This document shows, piece by piece, positions 2,754 to 56,227 of a DNA stretch of 64,000 bases. The stretch is taken from contig CAZWAK010000020.1 of assembly GCA_964631865.1 (NCBI GenBank), positions 3,587 to 67,586 of the forward strand. Reading direction: 5' to 3'. The position numbers and the translations under genes are program-made. The notes under the pieces are model-generated. The model searched no databases. It saw nothing but the letters and a program-made list of their open reading frames with translations, and was not told the DNA's origin. This stretch comes from an uncultured Heliobacteriaceae bacterium (GTDB taxonomy: Bacteria > Acidobacteriota > Blastocatellia > RBC074). Position 1 is the stretch's first letter; each line of letters opens with the position of its first letter.

Positions 2754-3730
2754 CGCGCTCGCCAAGCTTTGTGCCTGCGTTGTTGCGCCACGCGCCATGG
2801 CTGTTGTTCATCGCCGTGCTCGCGGTTTTCAGTTTGCTTGCGCCGCGTTTTCTGGCGGGCAACAATTTCCTCAACATCCTCGTGCAATCCGCCGCGACGA
2901 CGATTGTGGCGACGGGAATGACGTTTGTGTTGCTCACGGCGGGCATTGATCTGTCGGTCGGTTCCGTGATGTTCGTCGCGGCGGCGTTGGCAGGCAAATT
3001 GGTCTTGAACGGGCAACCGTTGTGGCTGGCTTGCGGGGTGATTTTACTGACCGGCGTCTTGTATGGCGCAGTCAACGCGCTGTTCATTACGCGGCTGCGT
3101 GTCATCCCGTTCATTGTCACGCTGGCGACGCTGTATTTCGGGCGCGGCTTGGGATTGTGGATTACAGAAACGCGCGCGATGAATTTGCCGGATTCCATCT
3201 TGCGCATCGGCACGGCCAGCCTCGCAGGCATTCCGTTCCCTGCCTTGATGCTCGTAGTTGTCGTCGTCATCGCGCACATCGTGCTGACACGCACGTCGTT
3301 CGGTCGCCAGATTTATGCGCTCGGCAATGACGCCGATGCGGCGCGCAAGGCGGGCATTCGCGTCGGGCGCATTCAATTCGCCGTGTATGTCATCAGCGGC
3401 GGCTGCGCGGCGCTCGGCGGACTTGTCTCCATCGCGCAACTCGGCGCGGTCTCTCCAACGTTCGGCAATCAACGCGAATTTGCCGCGATTGCGGCGGCAG
3501 TGCTGGGCGGCGTGAGTTTGTTCGGCGGCAGAGGCGCGGTGTTGCCAGGGATATTGCTCGGCGCGTTGCTGATTCAAACGATTGAAAATGGTTTGGTGAT
3601 CGCCAACGCCGATCCGTACCTCTATCCGTTGGTGATGAGCGCAATCATCTTTGTGGCGGTGCTGGTCGACAGCTTGCGCAACCGGCAACTGCAACGCGCG
3701 CAACGCCGCAAGGTGCGCGCGGCGGCATAA
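2750..3730 (+). CDS. Sugar ABC transporter permease (RbsC family)
   Basis: GMTFVLLTAGIDLSVGS and AAVLGGVSLFGGRG motifs. Confidence 0.9.
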   Translation: MTRSPSFVPALLRHAPWLLFIAVLAVFSLLAPRFLAGNNFLNILVQSAATTIVATGMTFVLLTAGIDLSVGSVMFVAAALAGKLVLNGQPLWLACGVILLTGVLYGAVNALFITRLRVIPFIVTLATLYFGRGLGLWITETRAMNLPDSILRIGTASLAGIPFPALMLVVVVVIAHIVLTRTSFGRQIYALGNDADAARKAGIRVGRIQFAVYVISGGCAALGGLVSIAQLGAVSPTFGNQREFAAIAAAVLGGVSLFGGRGAVLPGILLGALLIQTIENGLVIANADPYLYPLVMSAIIFVAVLVDSLRNRQLQRAQRRKVRAAA

Positions 3731-3949
3731 ATTGAACCGGAGCCGCAACGTTGCGCCGCTTGCACTCTCGTTACCAGATGCCAGGGCGACCATTGCGGCT
3801 TTTTGTCAGGCTAAGTTATGATGCGTCCGAAAAATTTGCGTCACGACAAAAAATTGTGACAAATCAAGCAACCGCAATAATAAAGGTGGCATCCCAGACG
3901 GCGCGCAAGGATCGCAAGTAGTTCATTTCATTTGTTTCGCGAGTTGCCT

Positions 3950-4606
3950 ATGTCGTCTGTCTCAATCACTGCTTCCAGGCCTGTCTTTGGGATGCCCGCC
4001 GCTAAGAGCGCTTCTGTAGCGCGAGCAAACGTGATGGTGGGAACAACCACAACGAACCCGGCGGTGCCGGATTTCGAACTGACACAGGCTGCCTCCAAGG
4101 GCGATATGACTGCGTTCGAGACGTTATACGAACGCCACTATCGCCGCGTCTACAGCTTATGCTTACGCATGCTGGCCAACGCGACCGAAGCCGAAGACTT
4201 AACGCAGGAAGTTTTTGTGCAGCTTTTCCGCAAGCTCGGCAGCTTTCGCGGCGAATCGCAATTCACGACCTGGCTGCATCGGTTGACAGTCAATCAAGTC
4301 CTGATGCACTTCCGCAAAAAAGGCGTGAAGTTGGAAAAGACGACGGAAGAAGGCGACGAGTTGAATGACATCGTCCAAATGGGCACCGAACGACCGAGTT
4401 CGATGCCGGTCGTGGATCGCATTGCGCTGGACGATGCCATCGCGCAATTGCCGCCGGGCTATCGGTCGGTCTTTGTGCTGCACGATGTCGAAGGCTACGA
4501 ACACGAAGAAATTGGAAAGTTACTGGGAGTAAGCGTGGGCACGTCCAAATCGCAACTCCACAAAGCTCGGATGAAATTACGTGGCTTGTTAACGAAAAAA
4601 CTATAA
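3950..4606 (+). CDS. ECF sigma-70 factor
   Basis: Region 2 (AEDLTQEVF...[13 protein letters not shown]) and region 4 ([41 protein letters not shown]). Start uncertain (3932, 3950 or 4033). Confidence 0.92.
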
Positions 4607-8754: not shown

Positions 8755-9321
8755 TCATTTGACCGGGAACGACAGAGCCTTGAAGCCAGCGCCGCGTTTG
8801 AATTCCACACTCGTTTTGTGGTTGGCAGCTTTCAGCAGCACTTGATTGACTTGATCCTCGAACAGTTCAAAAAACACGCGCTGGCGGAGTTGCGTGCCCG
8901 CCAAGCCTTCCGGCAGTTTGGCTTCGACGTACAACAAGGCTACATCGGCTTTCGGCTCCATCCCAATCCACGTCAGTTTTTTGACTTGTCCGCGGCTGCC
9001 TTTGAGTTCGACGGTTTCGCGCAGATACATCGCGATCAACGCAGGCGCATCTTTGTGATCAAGCTTGACCGCTTTGCCGCGGCGTTGGCTGAGCGCGGCT
9101 TCTAAATCGTTGGCAAAGACGCGCACCGTGATTTCCGCCGTCTTTGCCGCCGCGTTGTATTCAATCTGCGTGAAGCTGACGTGAAATTTGTGGGCAGCGG
9201 CAGGGAAAAAAAGAAGAAGGGGCAGGGAAAAGGGGAGAAGATGAGACAGGAGATGCCGCCAAGCGATCTCCCTATCTCCCCGTCTCCCTTTCTCCCCCTC
9301 TCCCCTTCTCGCAAACTTCAT
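8755..9321 (-). CDS. Exported protein resembling DUF6702 family
   Basis: Signal peptide ending AAA, then HKFHVSFTQIEYN...ITVRVFANDLEAAL...FFELFEDQVNQV. Start placed at ATG 9321; the longer ORF to 9684 looks non-coding. Confidence 0.7.
   Translation of the reverse strand: MKFARRGEGEKGRRGDREIAWRHLLSHLLPFSLPLLLFFPAAAHKFHVSFTQIEYNAAAKTAEITVRVFANDLEAALSQRRGKAVKLDHKDAPALIAMYLRETVELKGSRGQVKKLTWIGMEPKADVALLYVEAKLPEGLAGTQLRQRVFFELFEDQVNQVLLKAANHKTSVEFKRGAGFKALSFPVK
9202..9310. repeat. Inverted octamer-repeat element (TCTCCCNN x5.5 vs purine-rich arm) inside a CDS 5' end
   Basis: 9267-9310 reads TCTCCCTA TCTCCCCG TCTCCCTT TCTCCCCC TCTCCCCT TCTC. A degenerate complementary GGGAGA-type arm lies at 9202-9253. 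Confidence 0.75.
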
Positions 9322-10008: not shown

Positions 10009-10446
10009 ATGGCAAACGAGCAATTACTGGCGGCGCTGAACGAGGTGTTGGCGATGGAATACGGCGCGGTCATTCAATACGCGCAGCATCATTTTCTGGT
10101 GCGCGGACACGACCGGATTTTGTTTGGAAATTTCTTTGCCACCAATAGCCAGGAAGCCCATCTGCACGCGCTCAACTTGGGCAACAAGATTGTGGCGCTT
10201 GGCGGCGTGCCCACCATCAAGCCTGTGCCCGCGCAGGAAGCGGCGCACTTGCACGACATGCTGCTCCAGGATTTGGCCATGGAACGCCGCGCGTTGGCCG
10301 CGTACACGCAAGCGTGGGAGTTGGCGGCAGAACATCAATCGTTGCGGTTTTGGTTGGAAGACATCATCCGCCTCGAACAATTGCACGTCGAAGAGTTGGA
10401 ACGGCTCACCGATGAACAAGCCGCCAAAGCCAACACGACGGCTTGA
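10009..10446 (+). CDS. Ferritin-like (bacterioferritin/Dps-fold) di-iron protein
   Basis: LNEVLAMEYGAVIQY, EAHLHA..LGNKIVALGGVP, DLAMERRALAAY, EQLHVEEL (ExxH ligands). GGAG RBS. Confidence 0.85.
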   Translation: MANEQLLAALNEVLAMEYGAVIQYAQHHFLVRGHDRILFGNFFATNSQEAHLHALNLGNKIVALGGVPTIKPVPAQEAAHLHDMLLQDLAMERRALAAYTQAWELAAEHQSLRFWLEDIIRLEQLHVEELERLTDEQAAKANTTA

Positions 10447-11117: not shown

Positions 11118-11212
11118 CATTCTTCCTTCTTCATTCTTTACTCTTCATTCTTTTCGAGAAAAAAAGAAACCCTCTCGTCAGGAAGGAAGAAGGAAGAAGG
11201 AAGAAGAAAATG
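11118..11212. repeat. Inverted heptamer-repeat element (TTCTTCM vs GGAAGAA)
   Basis: Left arm 11118-11154, right arm 11181-11212 (GGAAGGAAGAAGGAAGAAGGAAGAAG). Confidence 0.75.
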
Positions 11213-12275: not shown

Positions 12276-12383
12276 GGTGGCCGGTGATCGGTGGCTGGTG
12301 GCCGGTTCTCTCATAGATCAGTGATAGGTGATCGTGAGCCAAAGGTTTACTACCGACCACCGATCACCGGCCACCGACCACCG
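12276..12383. repeat. Inverted heptamer-repeat element (GGTGRYY x4 vs ACCGRYC x4) between convergent genes
   Basis: 12276-12306 GGTGGCC GGTGATC GGTGGCT GGTGGCC GGT. 12352-12383 ACCGACC ACCGATC ACCGGCC ACCGACC ACCG. Confidence 0.9.
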
Positions 12384-23819: not shown

Positions 23820-23851
23820 AATCTCAAATCTCAAATCTCAAATTTCAAATC
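23820..23851. repeat. Heptamer tandem array (AATYTCA x4.5) just before a start codon
   Basis: AATCTCA AATCTCA AATCTCA AATTTCA AATC, 5 nt before ATG 23857. Confidence 0.85.
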
Positions 23852-35386: not shown

Positions 35387-35418
35387 GTTGAGTGTTTTCG
35401 ATTTTAGCTGACAGGCAA

Positions 35419-35450
35419 AATCTCAAATTTCAAATTTCAAATCTCAAATC
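35419..35450. repeat. Heptamer tandem array (AATYTCA x4.5), same family as 23820
   Basis: AATCTCA AATTTCA AATTTCA AATCTCA AATC, 3 nt before ATG 35454. Confidence 0.85.
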
Positions 35451-35453
35451 TTC

Positions 35454-36302
35454 ATGAGCTTGCACGAAGACAATCAGCGCTTGCGCGAAGAACGCGATTT
35501 GTTGCGGCGGCGCTTGGCTGAATTGGAAGAAGGCTTCGCACACAGCAACAGGGAAGTCTTCGCGATGAACGAGGCGCTGGTGCAGATGAATGCGCGACTC
35601 AGCGAATTGGATCGCATGAAAGACACGTTTCTTTCGATGATCACGCACGAACTGCGCACGCCGATGACCGCGATGATCGGCCTCGCCGAAAACCTCGAAG
35701 CCGGTGTCTACGGCCCGCTCAACGAAACCCAAACCGAGACGCTGCACAAGATCATCGAAAGCGGCGGACGGCTGCGCCAACTCGTCAACGATTTGCTCGA
35801 CCTCTCCAAAATGGAAGCCGGTGCGATGCGCTTGCAACGCGAACCGCTTGATCCGCGCACGCTGGTCGAAGCCGTGATTTATCAATTGGAATCACTCGCC
35901 GAAGCAGGCGGCGTGAAGCTCGTCAATCGCGTCGGCTACGATCTGCCCGAAGTGGATTGCGACGGGCAACGCATCGAACAGGTGTTGACGAACCTCATCA
36001 GCAACGCGCTGAAATTTACGCCGCCGGATGGGAGCGTGACGATTTCTGCGGCGACGCAAAATGATTTTGTCGTCTTCACAGTCACGGACACCGGTTGCGG
36101 CATTCCGCCCGAATCGCAGGCACACATCTTCGACAAATTCATTCAGCTTCATCCGAACCGCGATGATCGCACGAAAGGCACAGGGCTTGGGTTGGCCATT
36201 GTGCGGCATTTGGTGGAACTGCACGGCGGCAGCGTGAGCGTCGAAAGCGAAGTCGGGCAGGGCAGCCGTTTTTCCTTCCGCCTGCCAATTTCGCAACAAT
36301 GA
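35454..36302 (+). CDS. Cytoplasmic histidine kinase (coiled coil + HisKA + HATPase_c)
   Basis: H-box [10 protein letters not shown]-box [11 protein letters not shown]1 DTGCGI, F-box IFDKF, G2 GTGLGLAI. No TM or sensor domain. Confidence 0.92.
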
Positions 36303-38923: not shown

Positions 38924-40618
38924 ATGCCTACAGATGTAGTGATGCCGCAACTCGGCGAATCCATTGCCGAAGGAACGATTGTGCGTTGGTTGAAAAAAGT
39001 CGGTGACAGCGTGCAACGCGATGAACCGTTACTCGAAGTTTCGACCGACAAGGTAGACACCGAAATTCCTGCCGCTGCGGCGGGAACGTTGATTGCCATT
39101 CTCGCGCAGGAAGGCGAAACCGTCGCGGTGAATGCGGTCATTGCACAACTCGGCGAAGCGGGAGAAGCTGCTGTGCCTGCCGCGCCTGCCGCAGCACCTG
39201 CGCCGCCGCCACCGCCTGCCGCGCCCGCTGCGGTTGCGCCGCCTGCGCTTGCTGCTCCGGCTGCGCCTGTTGCCGCTGGCGCTGCGACGAACGTTGTGAT
39301 GCCGCAACTCGGCGAATCCATTGCCGAAGGAACGATTGTGCGTTGGTTGAAAAAAGTCGGTGACAGCGTGCAACGCGATGAACCGTTACTCGAAGTTTCG
39401 ACCGACAAGGTAGACACCGAAATTCCTTCGCCCGTTGCGGGTACATTGTTGTCCATCCTCGCGCAAGAAGGTGACACTGTCGCGGTGAACACAGCGATTG
39501 CGACGATTGGCGAAGCCGGAGCCGCTGCCCCAGCCGCACCCGCGCCAACGCCTGCACCTGCTGCGCCCGCTGCACCTGCGCCGCCGCCTGTTGCACCGCC
39601 TGCCGCGCCTGCTGTGGCTGCGGCTGCTGCGGTGGGTGGTTCGATTGAAGATTTACGCCGCGTCAAATCTTCGCCCGTCGTGCGCAAGATCGCTTCTGAA
39701 CATAACGTTAACATCGCGCACATCGCGGGTTCCGGCATTTCCGGTCGCGTGACGAAGAAAGACATTCTCAACTTTATTGCGAATCCGCCTGCACGGCCTG
39801 CGGCTCCATTCGTTGCGCCGCCGCCCATTGTTGCACCGCCGCCTGTGGCTGCGCCTGTCGCGGCTCTGGCTGCGCCTGCGAAACCCGCTGCGCCAGCCTT
39901 CGCACCGGGCGAGCGCGTGAAGATCGAACCGATGTCGAAGATGCGCAAGTCCATTGCCGAACACATGGTCTTGAGCAAACACACCGCGCCGCACGTCACG
40001 ACGTTCTTTGAAGTGGACTTCACGAACATCGCGCGCTTGCGTGATCGCGTGAAAAAAGACTTCGAGGCGAAAAACGGCGCGAAACTCACGTTCATGCCGT
40101 TCATCATCAAAGCCACGATTGACGCGCTCAAAGCCTTGCCCATCGTGAATGCTTCGCTGGATGGCGACAACATCGTTTACAAACAAGACATCAACATCGG
40201 GATGGCTGTTGCGCTGGATTGGGGCTTGATCGTCCCCGTTATCAAACAAGCCGATTCGATGAATCTAATCGGCCTTGCACGCGCCACGCAAGACCTCGCT
40301 GCACGCGCACGCGGCAAGCAACTCAAGCCCGATGAAATCGCGGGCGGCACATTCTCAATCACGAACTTCGGCTTGTTCGGAGGCTTGACTGCAACACCGG
40401 TCATCAATCAACCGCAATCCGCGATCCTCGGTGTCGGCGGCATTCACAAACGTCCCTGGGTGATGGAAACCGAACACGGCGACGTGATTGCGATTCGCCA
40501 CATCGGCATCCTGAGCCTGTCGTTCGATCATCGTCTGATTGACGGCGCGGTTGGCGATGAGTTTTTGGCGACGATGAAGAAATCGCTGGAAACAACCGAT
40601 TTTTCGGGTTTGCTGTAA
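38924..40618 (+). CDS. 2-oxoacid dehydrogenase E2 (dihydrolipoamide acyltransferase, SucB/DlaT-like) with two lipoyl domains
   Basis: Two EVSTDKVDTEIP lipoyl motifs, Ala/Pro linkers, E3-binding SSPVVRKIA, catalytic SFDHRLIDG. Confidence 0.95.
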   Translation: MPTDVVMPQLGESIAEGTIVRWLKKVGDSVQRDEPLLEVSTDKVDTEIPAAAAGTLIAILAQEGETVAVNAVIAQLGEAGEAAVPAAPAAAPAPPPPPAAPAAVAPPALAAPAAPVAAGAATNVVMPQLGESIAEGTIVRWLKKVGDSVQRDEPLLEVSTDKVDTEIPSPVAGTLLSILAQEGDTVAVNTAIATIGEAGAAAPAAPAPTPAPAAPAAPAPPPVAPPAAPAVAAAAAVGGSIEDLRRVKSSPVVRKIASEHNVNIAHIAGSGISGRVTKKDILNFIANPPARPAAPFVAPPPIVAPPPVAAPVAALAAPAKPAAPAFAPGERVKIEPMSKMRKSIAEHMVLSKHTAPHVTTFFEVDFTNIARLRDRVKKDFEAKNGAKLTFMPFIIKATIDALKALPIVNASLDGDNIVYKQDINIGMAVALDWGLIVPVIKQADSMNLIGLARATQDLAARARGKQLKPDEIAGGTFSITNFGLFGGLTATPVINQPQSAILGVGGIHKRPWVMETEHGDVIAIRHIGILSLSFDHRLIDGAVGDEFLATMKKSLETTDFSGLL

Positions 40619-40621
40619 ACC

Positions 40622-40735
40622 AAAAGCATTCTCGATTCTCCATTCTCAATTCTCCATTCGCAGGCCGGGAAAGATCGAACAACGACTTCCTGGCAAAGAA
40701 TTGAGAATGGAGAATCGAGAATTGAGAATGCTTTT
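40622..40735. repeat. Inverted heptamer-repeat element (ATTCTCV vs BGAGAAT) with 12-bp terminal IR
   Basis: AAAAGCATTCTC...(40622-40659) and ...GAGAATGCTTTT (40698-40735). Ends 3 nt before lipB ATG. Confidence 0.9.
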
Positions 40736-41395: not shown

Positions 41396-41455
41396 TCCGT
41401 CGTCAGTTGGTTTCCAGACGAGGGCTACTGGCAACTGACAACGGACAACGGACAA
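41384..41455. repeat. Inverted heptamer-repeat element (GTCCGTY vs CAACGGA)
   Basis: GTCCGTCGTCAGTTG (41395-41409) pairs with CAACTGACAACGGAC (41432-41446). Contains the lipB stop and ends 2 nt before ATG 41458. Confidence 0.8.
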
Positions 41456-46307: not shown

Positions 46308-46874
46308 ATGGTTATGACTACGATAGCTCGACGTTGGACATCAGCGGATTTGGCGATGTTGCCGGACGACAACAATCGCTACGAGATCATTGCCGGCGAG
46401 TTGTATGTTTCTGGCCTGCCGCATTACGCGCACCAACGAGCCTGCACTAACATCTGTGGCTTGCTCGGAGAGTTTTCGCGGCAAACCAAGCTGGGCGAAC
46501 CAGTCTACGGACGGGGAATTCTTTTTGCCGAAGATGAAGAAGTGATTCCTGACATTGCTTGGGTAAGTCGCCAACGACGCAGCGAGATTTTGGGCGCGGA
46601 CGGGCATTTTCACGGTGCGCCCGAATTAACGATTGAAGTGCTTGCCTATTCAGACGCAGACGTGCAACGCGACCGTGAGGCGAAGCTCAACCTCTATGCG
46701 CGGCGCGGCGTGGATGAATACTGGATCGTGGATTGGAAAGCTCAGCAGGTCGAAGTTTATCGGCGCGTTGCGTCTGTGCTGGAACTGGTCGCCACATTGA
46801 GTGCCACAGAGACATTAACCTCGCCTCGGCTGCCCGGCTTTAGTTGTCTTGTCGGGGAAATATTCGAGGACTGA
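46308..46874 (+). CDS. Uma2 family PD-(D/E)XK endonuclease-like protein
   Basis: NRYEIIAGEL, IPDIAW, PELTIEV, DREAKLNLYARRGVDEYWIVD. Confidence 0.88.
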   Translation: MVMTTIARRWTSADLAMLPDDNNRYEIIAGELYVSGLPHYAHQRACTNICGLLGEFSRQTKLGEPVYGRGILFAEDEEVIPDIAWVSRQRRSEILGADGHFHGAPELTIEVLAYSDADVQRDREAKLNLYARRGVDEYWIVDWKAQQVEVYRRVASVLELVATLSATETLTSPRLPGFSCLVGEIFED

Positions 46875-46889
46875 CACTTTTACGAATTT

Positions 46890-47120
46890 ATGCCGAATCC
46901 GAATGCCAAACAGCCGCAGAATGTGCCGGGGCGCTTTTATGTGGACACGAATTGTATTGATTGCGATGTCTGCCGCGACTTAGCTGAAAACAATTTCACG
47001 CGCCACGATGATGGCGGCTATTCCTACGTGTACAAACAACCCACCACGCCGGAAGAAGAAGCCCTCTGTCAGGAAGCGTTGGAGGTTTGCCCCGTCGAAG
47101 CGATTGGAAAGACTGCTTAG
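46890..47120 (+). CDS. Single-cluster ferredoxin
   Basis: YVDTNCIDCDVC...CPVEAIG. Confidence 0.9.
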   Translation: MPNPNAKQPQNVPGRFYVDTNCIDCDVCRDLAENNFTRHDDGGYSYVYKQPTTPEEEALCQEALEVCPVEAIGKTA

Positions 47121-47121
47121 A

Positions 47122-47216
47122 GTAGACGGTAGACAGTAGACGGTAGACAGTAGGCGGTAGAAGAGCTATCGCGTGACATCGAACTACCGACTACCGTCTA
47201 CCGTCTACCGTCTACT
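47122..47216. repeat. Empty inverted heptamer element (GTAGACR x5.5 vs CTACCGT x4.5)
   Basis: Arms 47122-47160 and 47184-47215 around a 23-nt core. Same heptamer as the flanks of the four-helix-bundle gene. Confidence 0.92.
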
Positions 47217-47886
47217 CCTTCCTCCACACGCTCCCATCCACATACTCAATCCGCTTGATCGCAACCGCGTCCTGATGAAATTGCGACGGGTCTTGAAAGC
47301 TCTTGCTGCACACGGATTCAAATGCCTTGCCGTCGCTGATCGTCACCACTTTGCATTTCATTGCACCTTGCGGCAGCGGTTGTTTGAGCGTTTTTTTGCC
47401 ACCGGGTTTGATCTCGGCTTTGCTCGTCACGTCGTAGCGCAACAGCAGCTTGCCGTCTTCATAACGCGGAAAGGCGAAGTCCCAGACGATGGTTTTGATG
47501 GCTTTGTCCGAGGTGTTTTTGAGCGAGAGGTTCACCCACTCGGCCAGATCAATCACGCGAATCGTCGAGCGCAATCTGCCGCCGCTTTTGTCTTCGGGCG
47601 CAATCACGCCGCGCGGGGTGGATTGGTTGTAAGTCGAATTCCCACGATTCGCCTGCGCTGTGCGGCGCGCGATTTTTTCGGCTTCGGTGGGCGGAATCTC
47701 CACCGCTTCTGCCGTGAAGGCGGAAGGCTGACGATCCAGCAGCGGGTAGTAATTGTTGCCGATTTTGAAGCTGATGATTTCGAGCGCAGGCTTGTCAGCG
47801 GCTTGGTTCGATTGCGCGAGGCCAGAAGCGGAAGCGCAAACAACGCTCAGCAAAACTAACCACGACCGGAGTAACAGGCTTCTCAT
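47212..47886 (-). CDS. Secreted hypothetical protein
   Basis: Signal peptide, Ig-like beta content (NLSLKNTSDKAIKTIVWDF...IKRIEYVDGSVW). The stop TAG lies in the repeat arm. Confidence 0.75.
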   Translation of the reverse strand: MRSLLLRSWLVLLSVVCASASGLAQSNQAADKPALEIISFKIGNNYYPLLDRQPSAFTAEAVEIPPTEAEKIARRTAQANRGNSTYNQSTPRGVIAPEDKSGGRLRSTIRVIDLAEWVNLSLKNTSDKAIKTIVWDFAFPRYEDGKLLLRYDVTSKAEIKPGGKKTLKQPLPQGAMKCKVVTISDGKAFESVCSKSFQDPSQFHQDAVAIKRIEYVDGSVWRKE

Positions 47887-51614: not shown

Positions 51615-51968
51615 TTGATGTACTCCTCTGAGAATGACCGCAGCCCGAAGAGGCTACGGAAGATTTTGCTGCACGAACGACTTTCCCAATGAGCAACGAA
51701 TTCGGAAGCCGCTGCACAGCTTTTCAAAGTTTGGTAATAACAAGTTCGAGGATTGTATTTTCAGCCCAGCAGTGCCGACTAAGTCTGCCATCGGTGGAAT
51801 TTCAGGAGATGGCCTTCGTGAACTTCGCTTGATCTCGTCAGCTTGCCGCGAATTATCGCCAGTGGTTTGACCAACTGTCAAGAGTGCGAGTATGCTTACG
51901 GCTCTTCGTGCCCTAAAATTTACGTTTCCTTAAACCCATCACTTGACACCCGCTTTCGGAGGATTTTT

Positions 51969-53324
<1,356 letters not shown>

Positions 53325-53335
53325 GCTTTGCTGGA

Positions 53336-53434
53336 GTAGACGGTAGACGGTAGACGGTAGGTTTAGGCACCAGGTTCCATTGCGCTGCGCGAGCGTGCGA
53401 TCAATCGCCAGCGCAATGGGACGGTAGACGGTAG
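53336..53434. repeat. Left arm of four-helix-bundle element: GTAGACG array, including a 37-bp direct duplication
   Basis: GTAGACG x3.5 at 53336-53360. 53346-53382 is identical to 53420-53456. Confidence 0.9.
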
Positions 53435-53466
53435 GTTTAGGCACCAGGTTCCATTGGGGAGAAATT

Positions 53467-53838
53467 ATGTCGCCGGCAAAAACATTTCAGGACTTGGAGG
53501 TTTGGAAGTTGGCACATCAGTTTGTGTTGAGTATTTACAAACTGACGGAAGGACTGCCGAAGCACGAAATGTTTGGGTTGACCTCGCAGTTACGTCGAGC
53601 GGCGGTTTCCGTTCCGGCGAATATTGCCGAAGGTTTCAAAAAGCGAACTCCTGCGGACAAGGCAAAGTTCTATAACATCTCGCAAGGCTCACTAGAAGAA
53701 TGCCGTTATTACCTGATCCTGATCCACGATCTTCAATATGCAGAAACCCCTCAGTTGCAAGATGAAGTAGATCGAATAGCCCGTGTTCTCGATTCCTATT
53801 TGAAAGCGATGTTAGAAGGATTTGCGACCTCTCGATAA
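53467..53838 (+). CDS. Four helix bundle protein (23S rRNA IVP / Avd-like family)
   Basis: FQDLEVWKLAH, LPKHEMFGLTSQLRRAAVSVPANIAEG, FYNISQGSLEECRYYLIL..DLQY. Confidence 0.95.
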   Translation: MSPAKTFQDLEVWKLAHQFVLSIYKLTEGLPKHEMFGLTSQLRRAAVSVPANIAEGFKKRTPADKAKFYNISQGSLEECRYYLILIHDLQYAETPQLQDEVDRIARVLDSYLKAMLEGFATSR

Positions 53839-53841
53839 CAA

Positions 53842-53927
53842 CTACCGTCTACCGTCTACCGTCTACCGTCTACCGTCTACTGTCTACTGTCTACCGTCTA
53901 CCGTCTACCGTCTACTGTCTACTGTCT
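53842..53927. repeat. Right arm: CTACYGT x12 tandem array, reverse complement of left arm
   Basis: 12 complete heptamers at 53842-53925, ending 3 nt before ATG 53929. Confidence 0.95.
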
Positions 53928-53928
53928 T

Positions 53929-55197
53929 ATGCCTAATCCTGTTGTCACTGCGATCCGAAGCGGCTCTGCGCCTGCGCCCGCGAAAATGGCGGCGGCGCGT
54001 GCAGCCCTGCCGTTGCCGCCCGAACACATGCTCGAAGTGCTCGTCTTGTTGACGCAGGACGCGGACGCTGAACTGAGCGCGACCGCGACGAAATCGCTCA
54101 ACGAATTTGACGCGGAACGGATGAAGAATGTGGTGATGATGAAAGAAACCGCGCGCGACGTGTTGCAACATTTATGCTCGTGGCGCGGCGGCAAACGCGA
54201 AGTCTATGAAGCTTTGATCCTGAACGACGCGACGCCTGATCCAGGCATCACGGAATTGGCGCGCTGGAACAAAGACGGCGCGGTGCTCGAACTCATCGCG
54301 ATCAATCAGGAGCGCATGATTCGTTACCCCGACATCATCAGCGCGCTCATTGACAACAAAGCCAGCACGCCCGAAGCCGTGCGCCGCGCGACCGAAGTGC
54401 GCATTGAATTCTTCGAGAAAGAACTCGGCGCAAAACGCATCGAAGAAGAACGCCGCGCCCGTGCCGCCGCCGCTTCGGCAGCATTGGGCTTACGCTACGT
54501 CGAAGAATCGCTCGTCGAATTGATTGACGAAGACATCGCGGCAGAAGACTTGAAGTTGGAAAACGCGCTGGGGTCGGAAGATGATCCGAAGATCGGGCCG
54601 GAATTCCTCCGCGCCATTCGCGACGAAGTCCAGCGCGTGCAAGCCGAGCCAGTCGTGGAAGCGCCCGTCGTCGCGCCGCCTGAGACCCCAGCCGAAGCCG
54701 CGCCCGACGAGGATGTAGAAACACAACAGGCCGTCAACGAAATCCTCAATCAGATGAAGGCCGATGGCGAAGAAGCGACGGCGGAACGGCTGACGATTAT
54801 GCAAAAGATCGCGCGCATGAGTGCGAAGGCGCGCGTGCAATTGGCGCTCAAAGGCAACCGCGAAGCGCGCAACATTCTGCGTCGCGATTCCAGCAAATCC
54901 GTCATCCTCGGCGTGCTGGGCAACCCGCGCATCACCGAATCTGAAGTCGAAGCGATTTCGGCGATGAAGACCTTGCCCGAAGAAGCGTTGCGCTTGATTG
55001 CCCTGAACCGCATGTGGATTCGCAACTATCCGATTGTTCACAATCTGGTGCGCAACGCGCGCACGCCCGTCGCGACGAGTCTGCCGCTCTTGAATCGCTT
55101 GTTCCCGAAAGACCTCAAAGGCCTGACCGGCAATCGCAACGTGCCCGATGTGTTGCGCAAACAGGCGGATCGGTTGGTGAAGGCGAAGAAGATTTAG
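53929..55197 (+). CDS. Conserved hypothetical helical-repeat protein
   Basis: 422-aa alpha-helical ORF with acidic linker and C-terminal repeats (LALKGNREARNILRRD...VLGNPRITESEV...LVRNARTP). Confidence 0.8.
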   Translation: MPNPVVTAIRSGSAPAPAKMAAARAALPLPPEHMLEVLVLLTQDADAELSATATKSLNEFDAERMKNVVMMKETARDVLQHLCSWRGGKREVYEALILNDATPDPGITELARWNKDGAVLELIAINQERMIRYPDIISALIDNKASTPEAVRRATEVRIEFFEKELGAKRIEEERRARAAAASAALGLRYVEESLVELIDEDIAAEDLKLENALGSEDDPKIGPEFLRAIRDEVQRVQAEPVVEAPVVAPPETPAEAAPDEDVETQQAVNEILNQMKADGEEATAERLTIMQKIARMSAKARVQLALKGNREARNILRRDSSKSVILGVLGNPRITESEVEAISAMKTLPEEALRLIALNRMWIRNYPIVHNLVRNARTPVATSLPLLNRLFPKDLKGLTGNRNVPDVLRKQADRLVKAKKI

Positions 55198-55221
55198 GCA
55201 GTCACACAAAAATTCTGCGCG

Positions 55222-55373
55222 GTGGCGCGATTTGCTAAATCGCGTTACGAACCCCTGCGGTGTGGCGCGATTTGCCAAATCGCGTTACGAACCCCTGCGG
55301 TGTGGCGCGATTTGCCAAATCGCGTTACGAACCCCTGCGGTGTGGCGCGATTTGCCAAATCGCGCTACGAACC
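55222..55373. repeat. Tandem array of four 40-bp REP units (GTGG + CGCGATTTG-C-CAAATCGCG palindrome)
   Basis: Units start at 55222, 55262, 55302 and 55342, with identical 13-nt linkers GAACCCCTGCGGT, between convergent genes. Confidence 0.9.
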
Positions 55374-55985
55374 TTGCACAGGCAGAGAGAAATGTTTTTT
55401 GAGCAGCATCAGGCCCGCGCGGACACGAGTCTTGACTGTGCCGAGCGGCAGGGCAAAGCGTTCTGCCAACTCTGTCTGACTGAGTCCTTCAAAATACGCC
55501 GCTTCAATCAACATCCGCTGTTCCGGGGTCAGTTGTGCCAACGCGCGGCGCACCGTCTGACTGCGTTCAGCATAGATGCTCATCTTTTCGGGATTGTCGC
55601 CAGGCGCGGCATAATGCACGACGGTGTCCAGCGTTTCGGTTTCCTGGCGCAAATACGAAGCGGAACGCAAACGATCAATCGAACGGGTGCGCGCAATCGT
55701 CATCAGCCACGAGAGCACCGTGCCGCGCATCGCTTCAAACTGCGCCGCCTGTCGCCACACTTGCATATAAATGTCGGTCGTGACTTCTTCTGCCGTCTCC
55801 CGATTGCCCAAAATGCGCAGCGCCAAACTAAACACCAGCCGATGCGTCTGATCGTAGAAGGTCGTGAACGCTTCCTGCTCGCCGCGCGCGATGGCGGTCA
55901 TCAACTTGCCCAATTGCTGGTCCTGGTCGGAACGCGGGACCGCTTTGGTCGGGGTCGAACTCAAGATTTGGGATGGTGCTGTCAT
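55365..55985 (-). CDS. ECF sigma-70 factor (SigK-like)
   Basis: AEEVTTDIYMQVWRQA.QF...RGTVLSWL..IARTRSID; YFEGLSQTELA....PLGTVKTRVR. The stop lies in the last REP unit. Confidence 0.92.
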   Translation of the reverse strand: MTAPSQILSSTPTKAVPRSDQDQQLGKLMTAIARGEQEAFTTFYDQTHRLVFSLALRILGNRETAEEVTTDIYMQVWRQAAQFEAMRGTVLSWLMTIARTRSIDRLRSASYLRQETETLDTVVHYAAPGDNPEKMSIYAERSQTVRRALAQLTPEQRMLIEAAYFEGLSQTELAERFALPLGTVKTRVRAGLMLLKKHFSLPVQGS

Positions 55986-55996
55986 AACCGCTCTCC

Positions 55997-56227
55997 TCAC
56001 AGGTCAGTTTGAAACGATGGCTCTTCGGCTGGTTCGGGTTCCATCTCTTCCGGCGCATCTTCCGGCTGGTAGTTTTGGCACGCCGCGACGATCCACTGCA
56101 GCGCCTCTTCGGGGGTGGCCGTGCGCTGGCGTTCGCCTTTTTGGATATGCTCAATGTCAAACACGATCTTTTCCGCGCCGTCCCGAATCACCCAACAACG
56201 CACTAAAAATGAACTGTACAGTTTCAT
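55997..56227 (-). CDS. Small hypothetical protein (76 aa) upstream of the ECF sigma
   Basis: MKLYSSFLVRCWVIRDGAEKIVFDIEHIQKGE..., with acidic tail. Its 3' end carries the GAGGAG RBS of the sigma gene. Confidence 0.65.
   Translation of the reverse strand: MKLYSSFLVRCWVIRDGAEKIVFDIEHIQKGERQRTATPEEALQWIVAACQNYQPEDAPEEMEPEPAEEPSFQTDL

Follow-up and report, generated by a model that had tools for sequence, protein, structure and literature searches.

Positions 53335-53927 of a 64,000-nucleotide stretch of contig CAZWAK010000020.1 (the window; assembly GCA_964631865.1, an uncultured bacterium of the Blastocatellia) hold a compact gene cassette. A gene for a 123-residue four-helix-bundle (4HB) protein is enclosed there by long inverted arrays of heptamers (Table 1). 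The cassette fills the gap between two co-oriented genes and is absent from the orthologous site in two relatives. Our analysis points to a widespread, largely undescribed kind of insertable gene cassette found across many phyla. We think it probable that it lives as an intervening sequence (IVS) in an operon transcript: promoterless, co-transcribed with its neighbours and held within a stem that RNase III should cleave.

Table 1. Features of the cassette, its host genes and a nearby hairpin of the same unit. Positions are those of the window; L numbers denote loci compared with it.
Feature	Position	Strand	Description
'Empty' hairpin	47120-47217		GTAGACR x5.7 / CTACCGT x4.6, loop of ~22 nt, between convergent genes
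Upstream host gene, TAT-signal Gfo/Idh/MocA oxidoreductase	51843-53324	+	PF01408, 2.9e-22; TIGR01409, 19.8 bits (cut-off 16.7)
Outer 5' arm	53335-53360	+	A + (GTAGACG) x3.6; register GGTAGAC, purine-rich; homology with sister cassettes (L001, L006) begins here
Leader copy A (GTTTAGGCACCAGGTTCCATTG)	53361-53382	+	belongs to a 37-nt exact duplication
Small internal hairpin	53374-53422	+	14-nt arms, 21-nt loop; on a 74-nt insertion private to the window copy
Inner 5' mini-arm	53420-53434	+	(GACGGTA) x2.1; 100% complementary to the proximal 3' array; inner stem tier in the minimum free energy (MFE) structure
Leader copy B with Shine-Dalgarno-like GGGGAG 7 nt before ATG	53435-53466	+	read from the sequence; aligns with the L001 and L006 leaders
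4HB protein gene, 123 aa, PF05635/TIGR02436	53467-53838	+	motif R44-x3-S48-x3-N52-x2-E55
3' arm	53842-53927	+	(CTACYGT) x12.3, reverse complement of the 5' unit; 1 nt separates it from the downstream ATG
Downstream host gene	53929-55197	+	conserved in Blastocatellia; no Pfam match

The bracketed gene and its leader

Inverted heptamer arrays enclose the 4HB gene on both sides. Tandem Repeats Finder resolves the 5' side into a GTAGACG array (x3.6, 53336-53360) and a second block (x2.1) at 53420-53434, and the 3' side into a single CTACCGT array (x12.3, 53842-53927; 96% matches, score 144) built of CTACCGT and CTACTGT units. In a repeat search the 26-nt arm at 53335-53360 is 100% complementary to 53856-53881 or to 53891-53916, and many slipped registers are available. 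A preliminary description of the locus, made from the letters alone, had placed the 123-residue gene between inverted GTAGACG and CTACYGT arrays and proposed that the transcript could fold into a slippable stem with the open reading frame (ORF) in its loop. The arrays and the perfect 26-nt arms are as described, and the fold is predicted as well: a two-tier stem holds the ORF in its loop, and the MFE of the cassette RNA is -227 kcal/mol, against -188 +/- 7.6 for shuffles (z = -5.1). Period 7 is the sole over-represented tandem period in the window, and neither shuffled nor displaced controls ever match the complementarity of the arms. A chance origin of that complementarity is therefore excluded.

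The leader of the window copy carries a 74-nt insertion that the preliminary description overlooked. Relative to the sister cassettes described below, the insertion consists of a 37-nt exact duplication (53346-53382 = 53420-53456) around a small hairpin, and it creates the second 5' mini-arm. A single leader copy is conserved in the aligned sister cassettes of L001, L006 and L010. All three lack the small hairpin, whose insert sequence is unique within the window.

Scans for expression signals and known RNAs were negative. No promoter-like or terminator-like site occurs in 53000-54300, where the 3' array runs into T-ATG and does not have the form of an intrinsic terminator. Searching 46.5-56.5 kb against Rfam (E<=1) returned no rRNA. 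Together with gathering-threshold scans of 20 loci, this search gave one tRNA and spurious miRNA-precursor matches to the empty hairpin, and it placed no known RNA family over arms or leader.

The enclosed ORF encodes a clear member of the 4HB family. It matches PF05635 at E=6e-36 (123.3 bits, cut-off 33.8) and TIGR02436 at E=2.2e-34 (118 bits, cut-off 24). R44, S48, N52 and E55 are invariant across the alignment of homologues, in a family motif, R-x3-S-x3-N-x2-E, already noted by Zhang and Ye (PMC3936711). The nearest solved structure is 2GSC (E=1.5e-18; 5 chains), which is XCC0516 of Xanthomonas, a protein named among IVS-encoded S23p orthologues and described as a homopentamer (PMC4990558). 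The ratio of nonsynonymous to synonymous change (dN/dS) between the gene and its sister copies is 0.05-0.09, which indicates that the protein is under strong purifying selection and is functional. The family is very large, with at least 8000 matches. To our knowledge no function has been assigned to it in the roughly 30 years since its discovery in rRNA intervening sequences.

Empty site, sister cassettes and the family-wide bracket

Two close relatives lack the cassette at the orthologous site. The preliminary description had proposed an insertion between a Tat oxidoreductase gene and a conserved gene, and had named an empty site in relatives as a check. PF01408, TIGR01409 and conservation of the downstream gene in Blastocatellia confirm the two neighbours. 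Orthologues of the downstream gene in L092 (90% identical) and L093 (a Blastocatellia metagenome-assembled genome; 89%) supply the empty site: both keep the synteny of TonB-dependent receptor, Gfo/Idh/MocA and downstream genes, without a 4HB gene. This matches the sporadic presence expected of an IVS. The spacer ahead of the orthologue is 187 nt long in L092 and 155 nt in L093. It holds a plain terminator-like hairpin in L093 and, in L092 (557-680), a hairpin of period-10 arrays (GGAAAGTCTG / CAGACTTTCC); array hairpins of differing periods can thus occupy one spacer. Because a conserved stretch of ~45 nt before the ATG is kept in L092 and L093 and lost in the window, the window state appears to be the derived one, an insertion that replaced the spacer. 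As a separate observation, the more distant relatives L094/L095 (2053-2721) have an RNase III gene ~1.3 kb upstream of their 53929-gene orthologue. Its proximity is probably coincidental; the gene does show that the clade has the enzyme.

Sister cassettes occur in unrelated gene contexts. The copy encoding P0002 (94% identical) is flanked by two ClpB-like genes in L001, and that encoding P0004 (90%) by an AAA ATPase gene on one side and a DAO-family gene on the other in L006. P0011 (81%) lies between anti-sigma kinase and SpoIIE phosphatase genes in L010, and P0015 (72%) between coxS- and coxL-like genes (small and large molybdenum hydroxylase subunits) in L008. All share one layout, namely (GTAGACG)n, a leader of ~40 nt, the ORF, TAA-CAA and (CTACCGT)n. 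The number of units varies (4.5/3.5 in L001, 10/4 in L006), and both arms of L008 have changed together, to GGTAGTC/GACTACC. When the ends are aligned, homology begins and stops at the outer ends of the 5' and 3' arrays, and the flanks of the window copy, L001, L006 and L010 share no target-site duplication.

Boundaries that coincide exactly with palindrome ends, with no target-site duplication, would also suit a DNA-level palindromic ('foldback'-type) element. The arrays of such a mobile or recombining element would act as cruciforms, single-stranded DNA (ssDNA) hairpins or homology for RecA exchange; an RNA stem would be a by-product, and the 4HB protein would either be carried as cargo or help by binding DNA. 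The period-10 array hairpin and the plain hairpin at the orthologous site in L092 and L093 fit this idea too. We nevertheless hold it to be unlikely. Pfam domains reveal no transposase, integrase or REP-associated tyrosine transposase (RAYT)-type gene within +/-8 kb of the cassette, and no near-identical copies were found, the nearest being 88-93% nucleotide-identical.

The alignments indicate relocation or gain of the cassette but do not document a recent jump. The proportion of synonymous differences (pS) between sister copies is 0.25-0.39, about that of host genes (0.37-0.41), and recent cassette transfer is unsupported. The mobility that the preliminary description had suggested is supported by the empty site and the unrelated contexts, and this support does not extend to a recent move. 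At sites shared by related genomes the unit drifts and both arms follow, as in GGTAGTC vs GGAAGTC at coxS|coxL, CAGAAAT vs CAGAAGC at x|lgt, and again at a livG/livF-like ABC gene pair. The gyrB|gyrA junction, recognised by its translated termini, holds a 4HB cassette in both L040 and L048 (3001-3366), from a Nitrospiraceae genome and a Lacunisphaera (Verrucomicrobiota) genome. Because their heptamer units differ (CAGGAGT vs AGTAGCG), this suggests independent insertions in two phyla.

The bracket is typical of the 4HB family, not universal. From an alignment of 24 homologues we obtained 80 loci in GTDB species genomes, and 85 loci were scored in all, from at least ten phyla (Acidobacteriota, Planctomycetota, Nitrospirota, Cyanobacteria, Verrucomicrobiota, Bacteroidota, Firmicutes, Desulfobacterota, Fibrobacterota and Calditrichota). 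To obtain the inverted-repeat (IR) score, the 160-nt flanks on either side of the ORF were compared for their best ungapped inverted repeat, and scores of at least 14 counted as positive. The family survey that had been proposed as a further check bears the idea out: 55 of the 85 loci are bracketed by inverted heptamer arrays, against 1/83 when displaced by 1.3 kb and 0/85 when shuffled. Neighbour genes score positive in 2/58 upstream and 3/58 downstream cases (5/116 together). Within 250 nt of 4HB genes, period-7 arrays reach ~17 times their density in the remainder of those loci. Units vary from locus to locus (AGGAGTC, AGAAGTC, AGAATAC, GGAAGAC, AGTAGCG and others) and the two arms of one locus match; when 3' arms are ranked as partners of a given 5' arm, the cognate one comes first in 15/55 loci and within the top three in 29/55. 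Both relatives from viral contigs (41-48% identical) are bracketed as well. With only these two, phages are not supported as a major home of the window's 4HB subfamily.

These counts bear on the simplest explanation, that in a genome rich in array hairpins one of them happens to enclose a small gene. The window does contain at least five other array hairpins, and single arrays besides, without a 4HB gene. The displaced and neighbour-gene controls effectively refute coincidence, and the arms, leader and ORF of sister cassettes share one homology unit; we give this explanation next to no credence.

A common polarity and a common unit theme run through the bracketed loci. The 5' arm is purine-rich in 55/55 hairpin-positive loci (median 73% purine). 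The 23 distinct dominant units fit R-G-N-A-G-N-C, with G2 and A4 invariant, G5 in 18/23 and C7 in 15/23; their fit averages 5.22/7, where letter-shuffled units reach 4.54 +/- 0.10. The window unit GGTAGAC fits the theme, as does AGRAKTC of Geobacter, and AGATGAC of Coxiella fits it at 6/7 positions.

A core conserved across phyla suggests sequence-specific recognition, and recognition could also belong to fixed cis-regulatory arrays of an immobile element. The arrays would then be operator or RNA sites for the 4HB protein (autoregulation) or for a global DNA-bending protein, and would arise and drift in place by slippage. Their variable copy number agrees with this, as do Shine-Dalgarno-like AGGAG units directly before many 4HB start codons and the published reading of MTYCTGA x5 array pairs as global-regulator sites (PMC2700814). 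We judge the explanation quite improbable. The unit of arms plus gene recurs in unrelated contexts and is missing at the L092/L093 site, the gyrB|gyrA insertions of two phyla appear independent and carry different units, and 4HB genes are scattered within cas operons (PMC3936711) and rRNA genes. Regulation and mobility are not, however, mutually exclusive.

By GC3-aware heuristic gene calls, 46 hairpin-positive cassettes are co-oriented with both neighbours and 0 are opposed to both. A DNA palindrome is strand-symmetric, and this count therefore speaks against a foldback-type element, although a promoterless ORF, which needs read-through transcription, could be co-oriented for that reason alone. 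Hairpin-positive cassettes occupy the whole gap between co-oriented genes: in median terms the 5' arm overlaps the upstream stop codon by 1.5 nt, a 3-nt gap separates the 4HB stop from the 3' arm, and 10 nt remain between that arm and the following start codon. The corresponding gaps in the window are 10 nt (upstream stop codon to 5' arm), 3 nt and 1 nt. Isolated mismatches in the stems are biased to the G.U type on the sense strand (29 vs 11 of A.C type, p=0.003), which fits pairing in sense RNA and counts against the DNA-level alternative.

Hairpins without the gene

An empty counterpart of the cassette lies ~6 kb away. The preliminary description had called the cassette a candidate 'loaded' form of a repeat-hairpin element, and the distinction of loaded and empty forms holds: the hairpin at 47120-47217 combines the GTAGACG unit and a short loop with outer ends identical to those of the cassettes, GAGTAGAC...GTCTACTC. 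Its RNA folds at -59.6 kcal/mol (z = -6.4). A hairpin with the unit and outer ends of the cassette so close by also suits a foldback-type element. The likeness of its loop to the 3' end of the cassette ORF is, by eye, too short to serve as evidence of an origin by deletion. Beside it, a Uma2-family gene (46308-46874; PF05685, putative restriction endonuclease) is followed by a small ferredoxin-like ORF (46891-47119) whose stop codon abuts the hairpin. Uma2 is another multi-copy family in similar genomes.

A 4HB gene predicts a hairpin, and a hairpin does not predict a 4HB gene, because a metagenome scan for (GTAGACG)3 gave one clear loaded case among 115 evaluable arrays. These divide into 34 short hairpins, 73 solitary arrays and 8 arrays with a distant partner, and of the last only L098 clearly holds a 4HB gene. 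The pyrimidine arm comes first in 0/115. Short hairpins in 34/115, all with one arm order, again suit a foldback-type element. A 117-residue ORF (~60-650) inside a GTAGACG-type hairpin of L213 was considered as a 4HB protein and not accepted: it has no Pfam family and profile comparison gives E=0.11. This cargo is either a very divergent 4HB protein or cargo of another type, the local likeness RLRLAFQMIAEEIAEG being insignificant.

Some arrays are nested in larger palindromes. In L199 (~10040-10280), hexamer arrays AAAGGC/GCCTTT lie within a GC-rich palindrome, which lies within GTAGACG arms, which lie within an A9/T9 palindrome. In L090 (2800-3579), complementary unique 19-mers enclose a 4HB gene together with its 17+17 GGAGACR units. 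It is as if arrays or whole cassettes sat at the apex of older hairpins. Nesting in larger unique palindromes is likewise compatible with movement at the DNA level. Arrays of one unit can also fill neighbouring operon spacers: L189 (~3520-4290) has GTAGACG/CTACCGT arrays in two consecutive spacers around an opposite-strand ORF, which was likened by eye to the ATP synthase delta subunit.

The window is rich in other repeats. Intergenic hairpins of inverted heptamer arrays with other units lie at 170-262 (CCATTYT/GGAAAAT), 11118-11206 (CATTCTT/GAAGGAA), 12276-12383 (GGTGRYC/ACCGRYC) and 40627-40730 (CATTCTC/GAGAATG). They fold at z -6.4 to -10, save 11118-11206 (z -2.4), and three of the four have the pyrimidine arm first, opposite to all 4HB cassettes. 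Solitary arrays stand directly 5' of start codons at 23820-23851 (AATCTCA), 35418-35454 (AAATTTC/AATCTCA), 41432-41455 (CAACGGA) and 9266-9310 (8-mer ATCTCCCC), with no inverted partner seen nearby; they recall cyanobacterial short tandemly repeated repetitive (STRR) sequences and TAACTGA-type repeats. Four tandem copies of a 40-nt unit (55215-55373, 96% matches), each with the palindrome GCGATTTGCCAAATCGC, have the look of repetitive extragenic palindromic (REP) elements and sit between the convergent genes 53929-55197 and 55365-56000, the latter for an ECF sigma factor. A 357-nt tandem duplication (38939-39603, x1.9, 83% matches) within ORF 38924-40618, flanked by Ala/Pro-rich repeats of 9 to 21 nt, is probably ordinary: a duplicated lipoyl domain with linkers in an E2 acyltransferase.

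Proposed residence in the operon transcript and known systems

We propose that the cassette persists as a passenger of its host operon's RNA. Read-through transcription would make it part of the operon transcript, in which the purine-rich 5' array would pair with the pyrimidine-rich 3' array over 26 bp or more, in any of several registers. The base of the resulting stem would set the upstream stop codon beside the downstream start codon. Double-stranded RNA stems of at least 20 bp are canonical RNase III substrates, and this one would be cut like the IVSs of Coxiella, Leptospira and Salmonella, which would free the 4HB mRNA and split the flanking cistrons. With so compact a layout, the host operon would pay little for carrying the cassette. 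Conservation of the heptamer theme suggests that some partner reads its sequence, and the 4HB protein is the most economical candidate. New sites might be reached by recombination through the arrays into empty hairpins, by insertion at the apex of pre-existing hairpins, or by an RNA-mediated route.

Several points weigh against such residence in the transcript. Ribosomes translating the enclosed ORF would tend to melt the stem, and the arms are strongly unequal here (5.7 vs 12.3 units). The G.U excess could alternatively come from a C-to-T bias on the coding or leading strand. There is no documented case of recent transposition, and because sister copies and host genes are about equally diverged, differential loss of old paralogues is a possible alternative to movement. 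Most GTAGACG arrays in the metagenomes stand without a 4HB gene (34 + 73 vs 1 clear loaded case). Conversely, ~35% of the sampled 4HB genes have no detectable hairpin. Among them is a subgroup without detected arrays in Bryobacterales/Acidobacteriales (L050, L058, L061, L066, L068, L071, L073, L088 and L091), whose 4HB genes are syntenic and have gene calls on the opposite strand on both sides. One homologous upstream gene of ~550 aa is common to L061, L066, L068, L073, L088 and L091, and another to L050, L058 and L071. It may be that this branch of the family has become fixed, or 'domesticated'.

A bolder proposal, which we consider doubtful, joins the loaded cassettes and the commoner empty heptamer hairpins as autonomous and non-autonomous forms of one new class of element. 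A pentameric 4HB protein would recognise R-G-N-A-G-N-C arrays and promote their spread or maintenance at the apex of hairpins, with terminators, operon spacers and rRNA helices as hosts. The empty forms would include 47120, others in the window and the Geobacter 'regulator sites' discussed below. Were this true, ORF-containing rRNA IVSs, many intergenic heptamer arrays and the scatter of 4HB genes in cas and housekeeping operons would have one origin.

Neither the general architecture outside rRNA nor the shared R-G-N-A-G-N-C unit is described in the searchable literature. In the full texts open without subscription we found no link between the 4HB family and inverted heptamer arrays outside the Coxiella IVS, no paper that ties together the findings on known systems discussed below or describes the bracket as a family property and, in line with the preliminary description, no functional account of the architecture. 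If residence in the transcript is the true account, the cassette would be a model of low-cost operon life through an RNase III-cleavable stem that juxtaposes stop and start codons, and it would give a protein family related to the diversity-generating retroelement (DGR) factor Avd a defined nucleic-acid ligand.

Among known repeats, the cassette recalls REPs, the bacterial interspersed mosaic elements (BIMEs) built from them and miniature inverted-repeat transposable elements (MITEs), all short multi-copy intergenic palindromes that form hairpins in RNA or ssDNA. REPs are single palindromes of 20-40 bp moved by RAYT transposases, and MITEs have target-site duplications. The cassette differs in having no target-site duplication and no RAYT or other transposase gene within +/-8 kb, and it does not qualify as an insertion sequence or MITE, no near-identical copies having been found either. 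REPs tagged with GTAG/CGTC offer a comparison for the window unit, which contains both GTAG and CGTC (PMC3733652). Unlike REPs, cassette arms are built of tandem units that change from locus to locus, and GTAG is missing from most of these units.

Tandem heptamers are known from several other settings. Those of cyanobacteria, Beggiatoaceae and Bacteroidetes (STRR; TAACTGA), for which a post-transcriptional role has been proposed (PMC4679880), share with the cassette arms a 7-nt intergenic unit near start codons, a variable copy number and a patchy phyletic spread. They differ in being direct, with one inverted case in a Beggiatoa genome, in enclosing no gene and in their unit. In Geobacter metallireducens, two arrays of about five MTYCTGA units stand ~100 nt apart on opposite strands at the operon junctions moaA|mosC and proB|proA and look like the empty form; they were read as sites for a global regulator of the IHF/HU type (PMC2700814, Aklujkar et al. 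2009). These arrays were described without an enclosed gene and without a link to the 4HB family or to IVSs. If our account holds, paired heptamer arrays annotated as regulator sites or as STRR-like repeats would gain a candidate origin.

The protein itself leads to DGRs. Avd is a DGR accessory protein, a pentameric four-helix bundle that serves as a positively charged scaffold for binding nucleic acid and reverse transcriptase. Homology to Avd, which the preliminary description had brought in, is real but remote: the ORF matches the Avd model NF033474 weakly (E=9e-5), and its 22.7 bits are far below the cut-off of 80 at which the two would count as equivalogs. Pfam searches of 13 neighbouring proteins show no reverse transcriptase within +/-8 kb, and no template/variable repeat pair was noticed near the cassette, where the heptamer arrays and the 37-nt duplication are the only repeats. 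We know of no DGR Avd genes bracketed by heptamer arrays.

4HB genes in cas operons resemble the cassette in their setting, wedged between co-oriented operon genes. Altae-Tran and colleagues reportedly also found 23S_rRNA_IVP genes inside cas operons in 2023. Family members between cas genes, for example cmr3 and cmr2, were read as a functional CRISPR association, and the repeats flanking them were left unexamined (PMC3936711, Zhang and Ye 2013). The junctions collected here (gyrB|gyrA, coxS|coxL, livG|livF-like and atp-like) suggest promiscuous insertion into operons generally. If so, the associations of the family with CRISPR-Cas and other operons are probably insertions and not functional links.

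The closest known relatives are the ORF-containing 23S rRNA IVSs of Coxiella burnetii, Leptospira, Xanthomonas (XCC0516) and Brucella, and the cassettes are likely to be their counterparts in protein-coding operons. They share the protein family, terminal inverted repeats, a long stem around a sense-strand ORF and sporadic presence among relatives. The tie is stronger than the preliminary description had it. In Coxiella, RNase III cuts the 28-bp terminal stem of the 23S IVS at its middle (in vitro and by rapid amplification of cDNA ends), and two or three tandem GACAGAT heptamers, depending on the strain, stand ahead of the 4HB ORF (PMC4990558). Family members also occur in 16S and 23S insertions of candidate phyla radiation (CPR) bacteria. 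The window element differs from these IVSs in lying between protein-coding genes and not within an rRNA helix, and in arms that are pure tandem arrays, of up to 12 units here and 17 in L090. If inverted heptamer arrays are indeed the typical packaging of 4HB genes, rRNA IVSs would be one special case of a general element.

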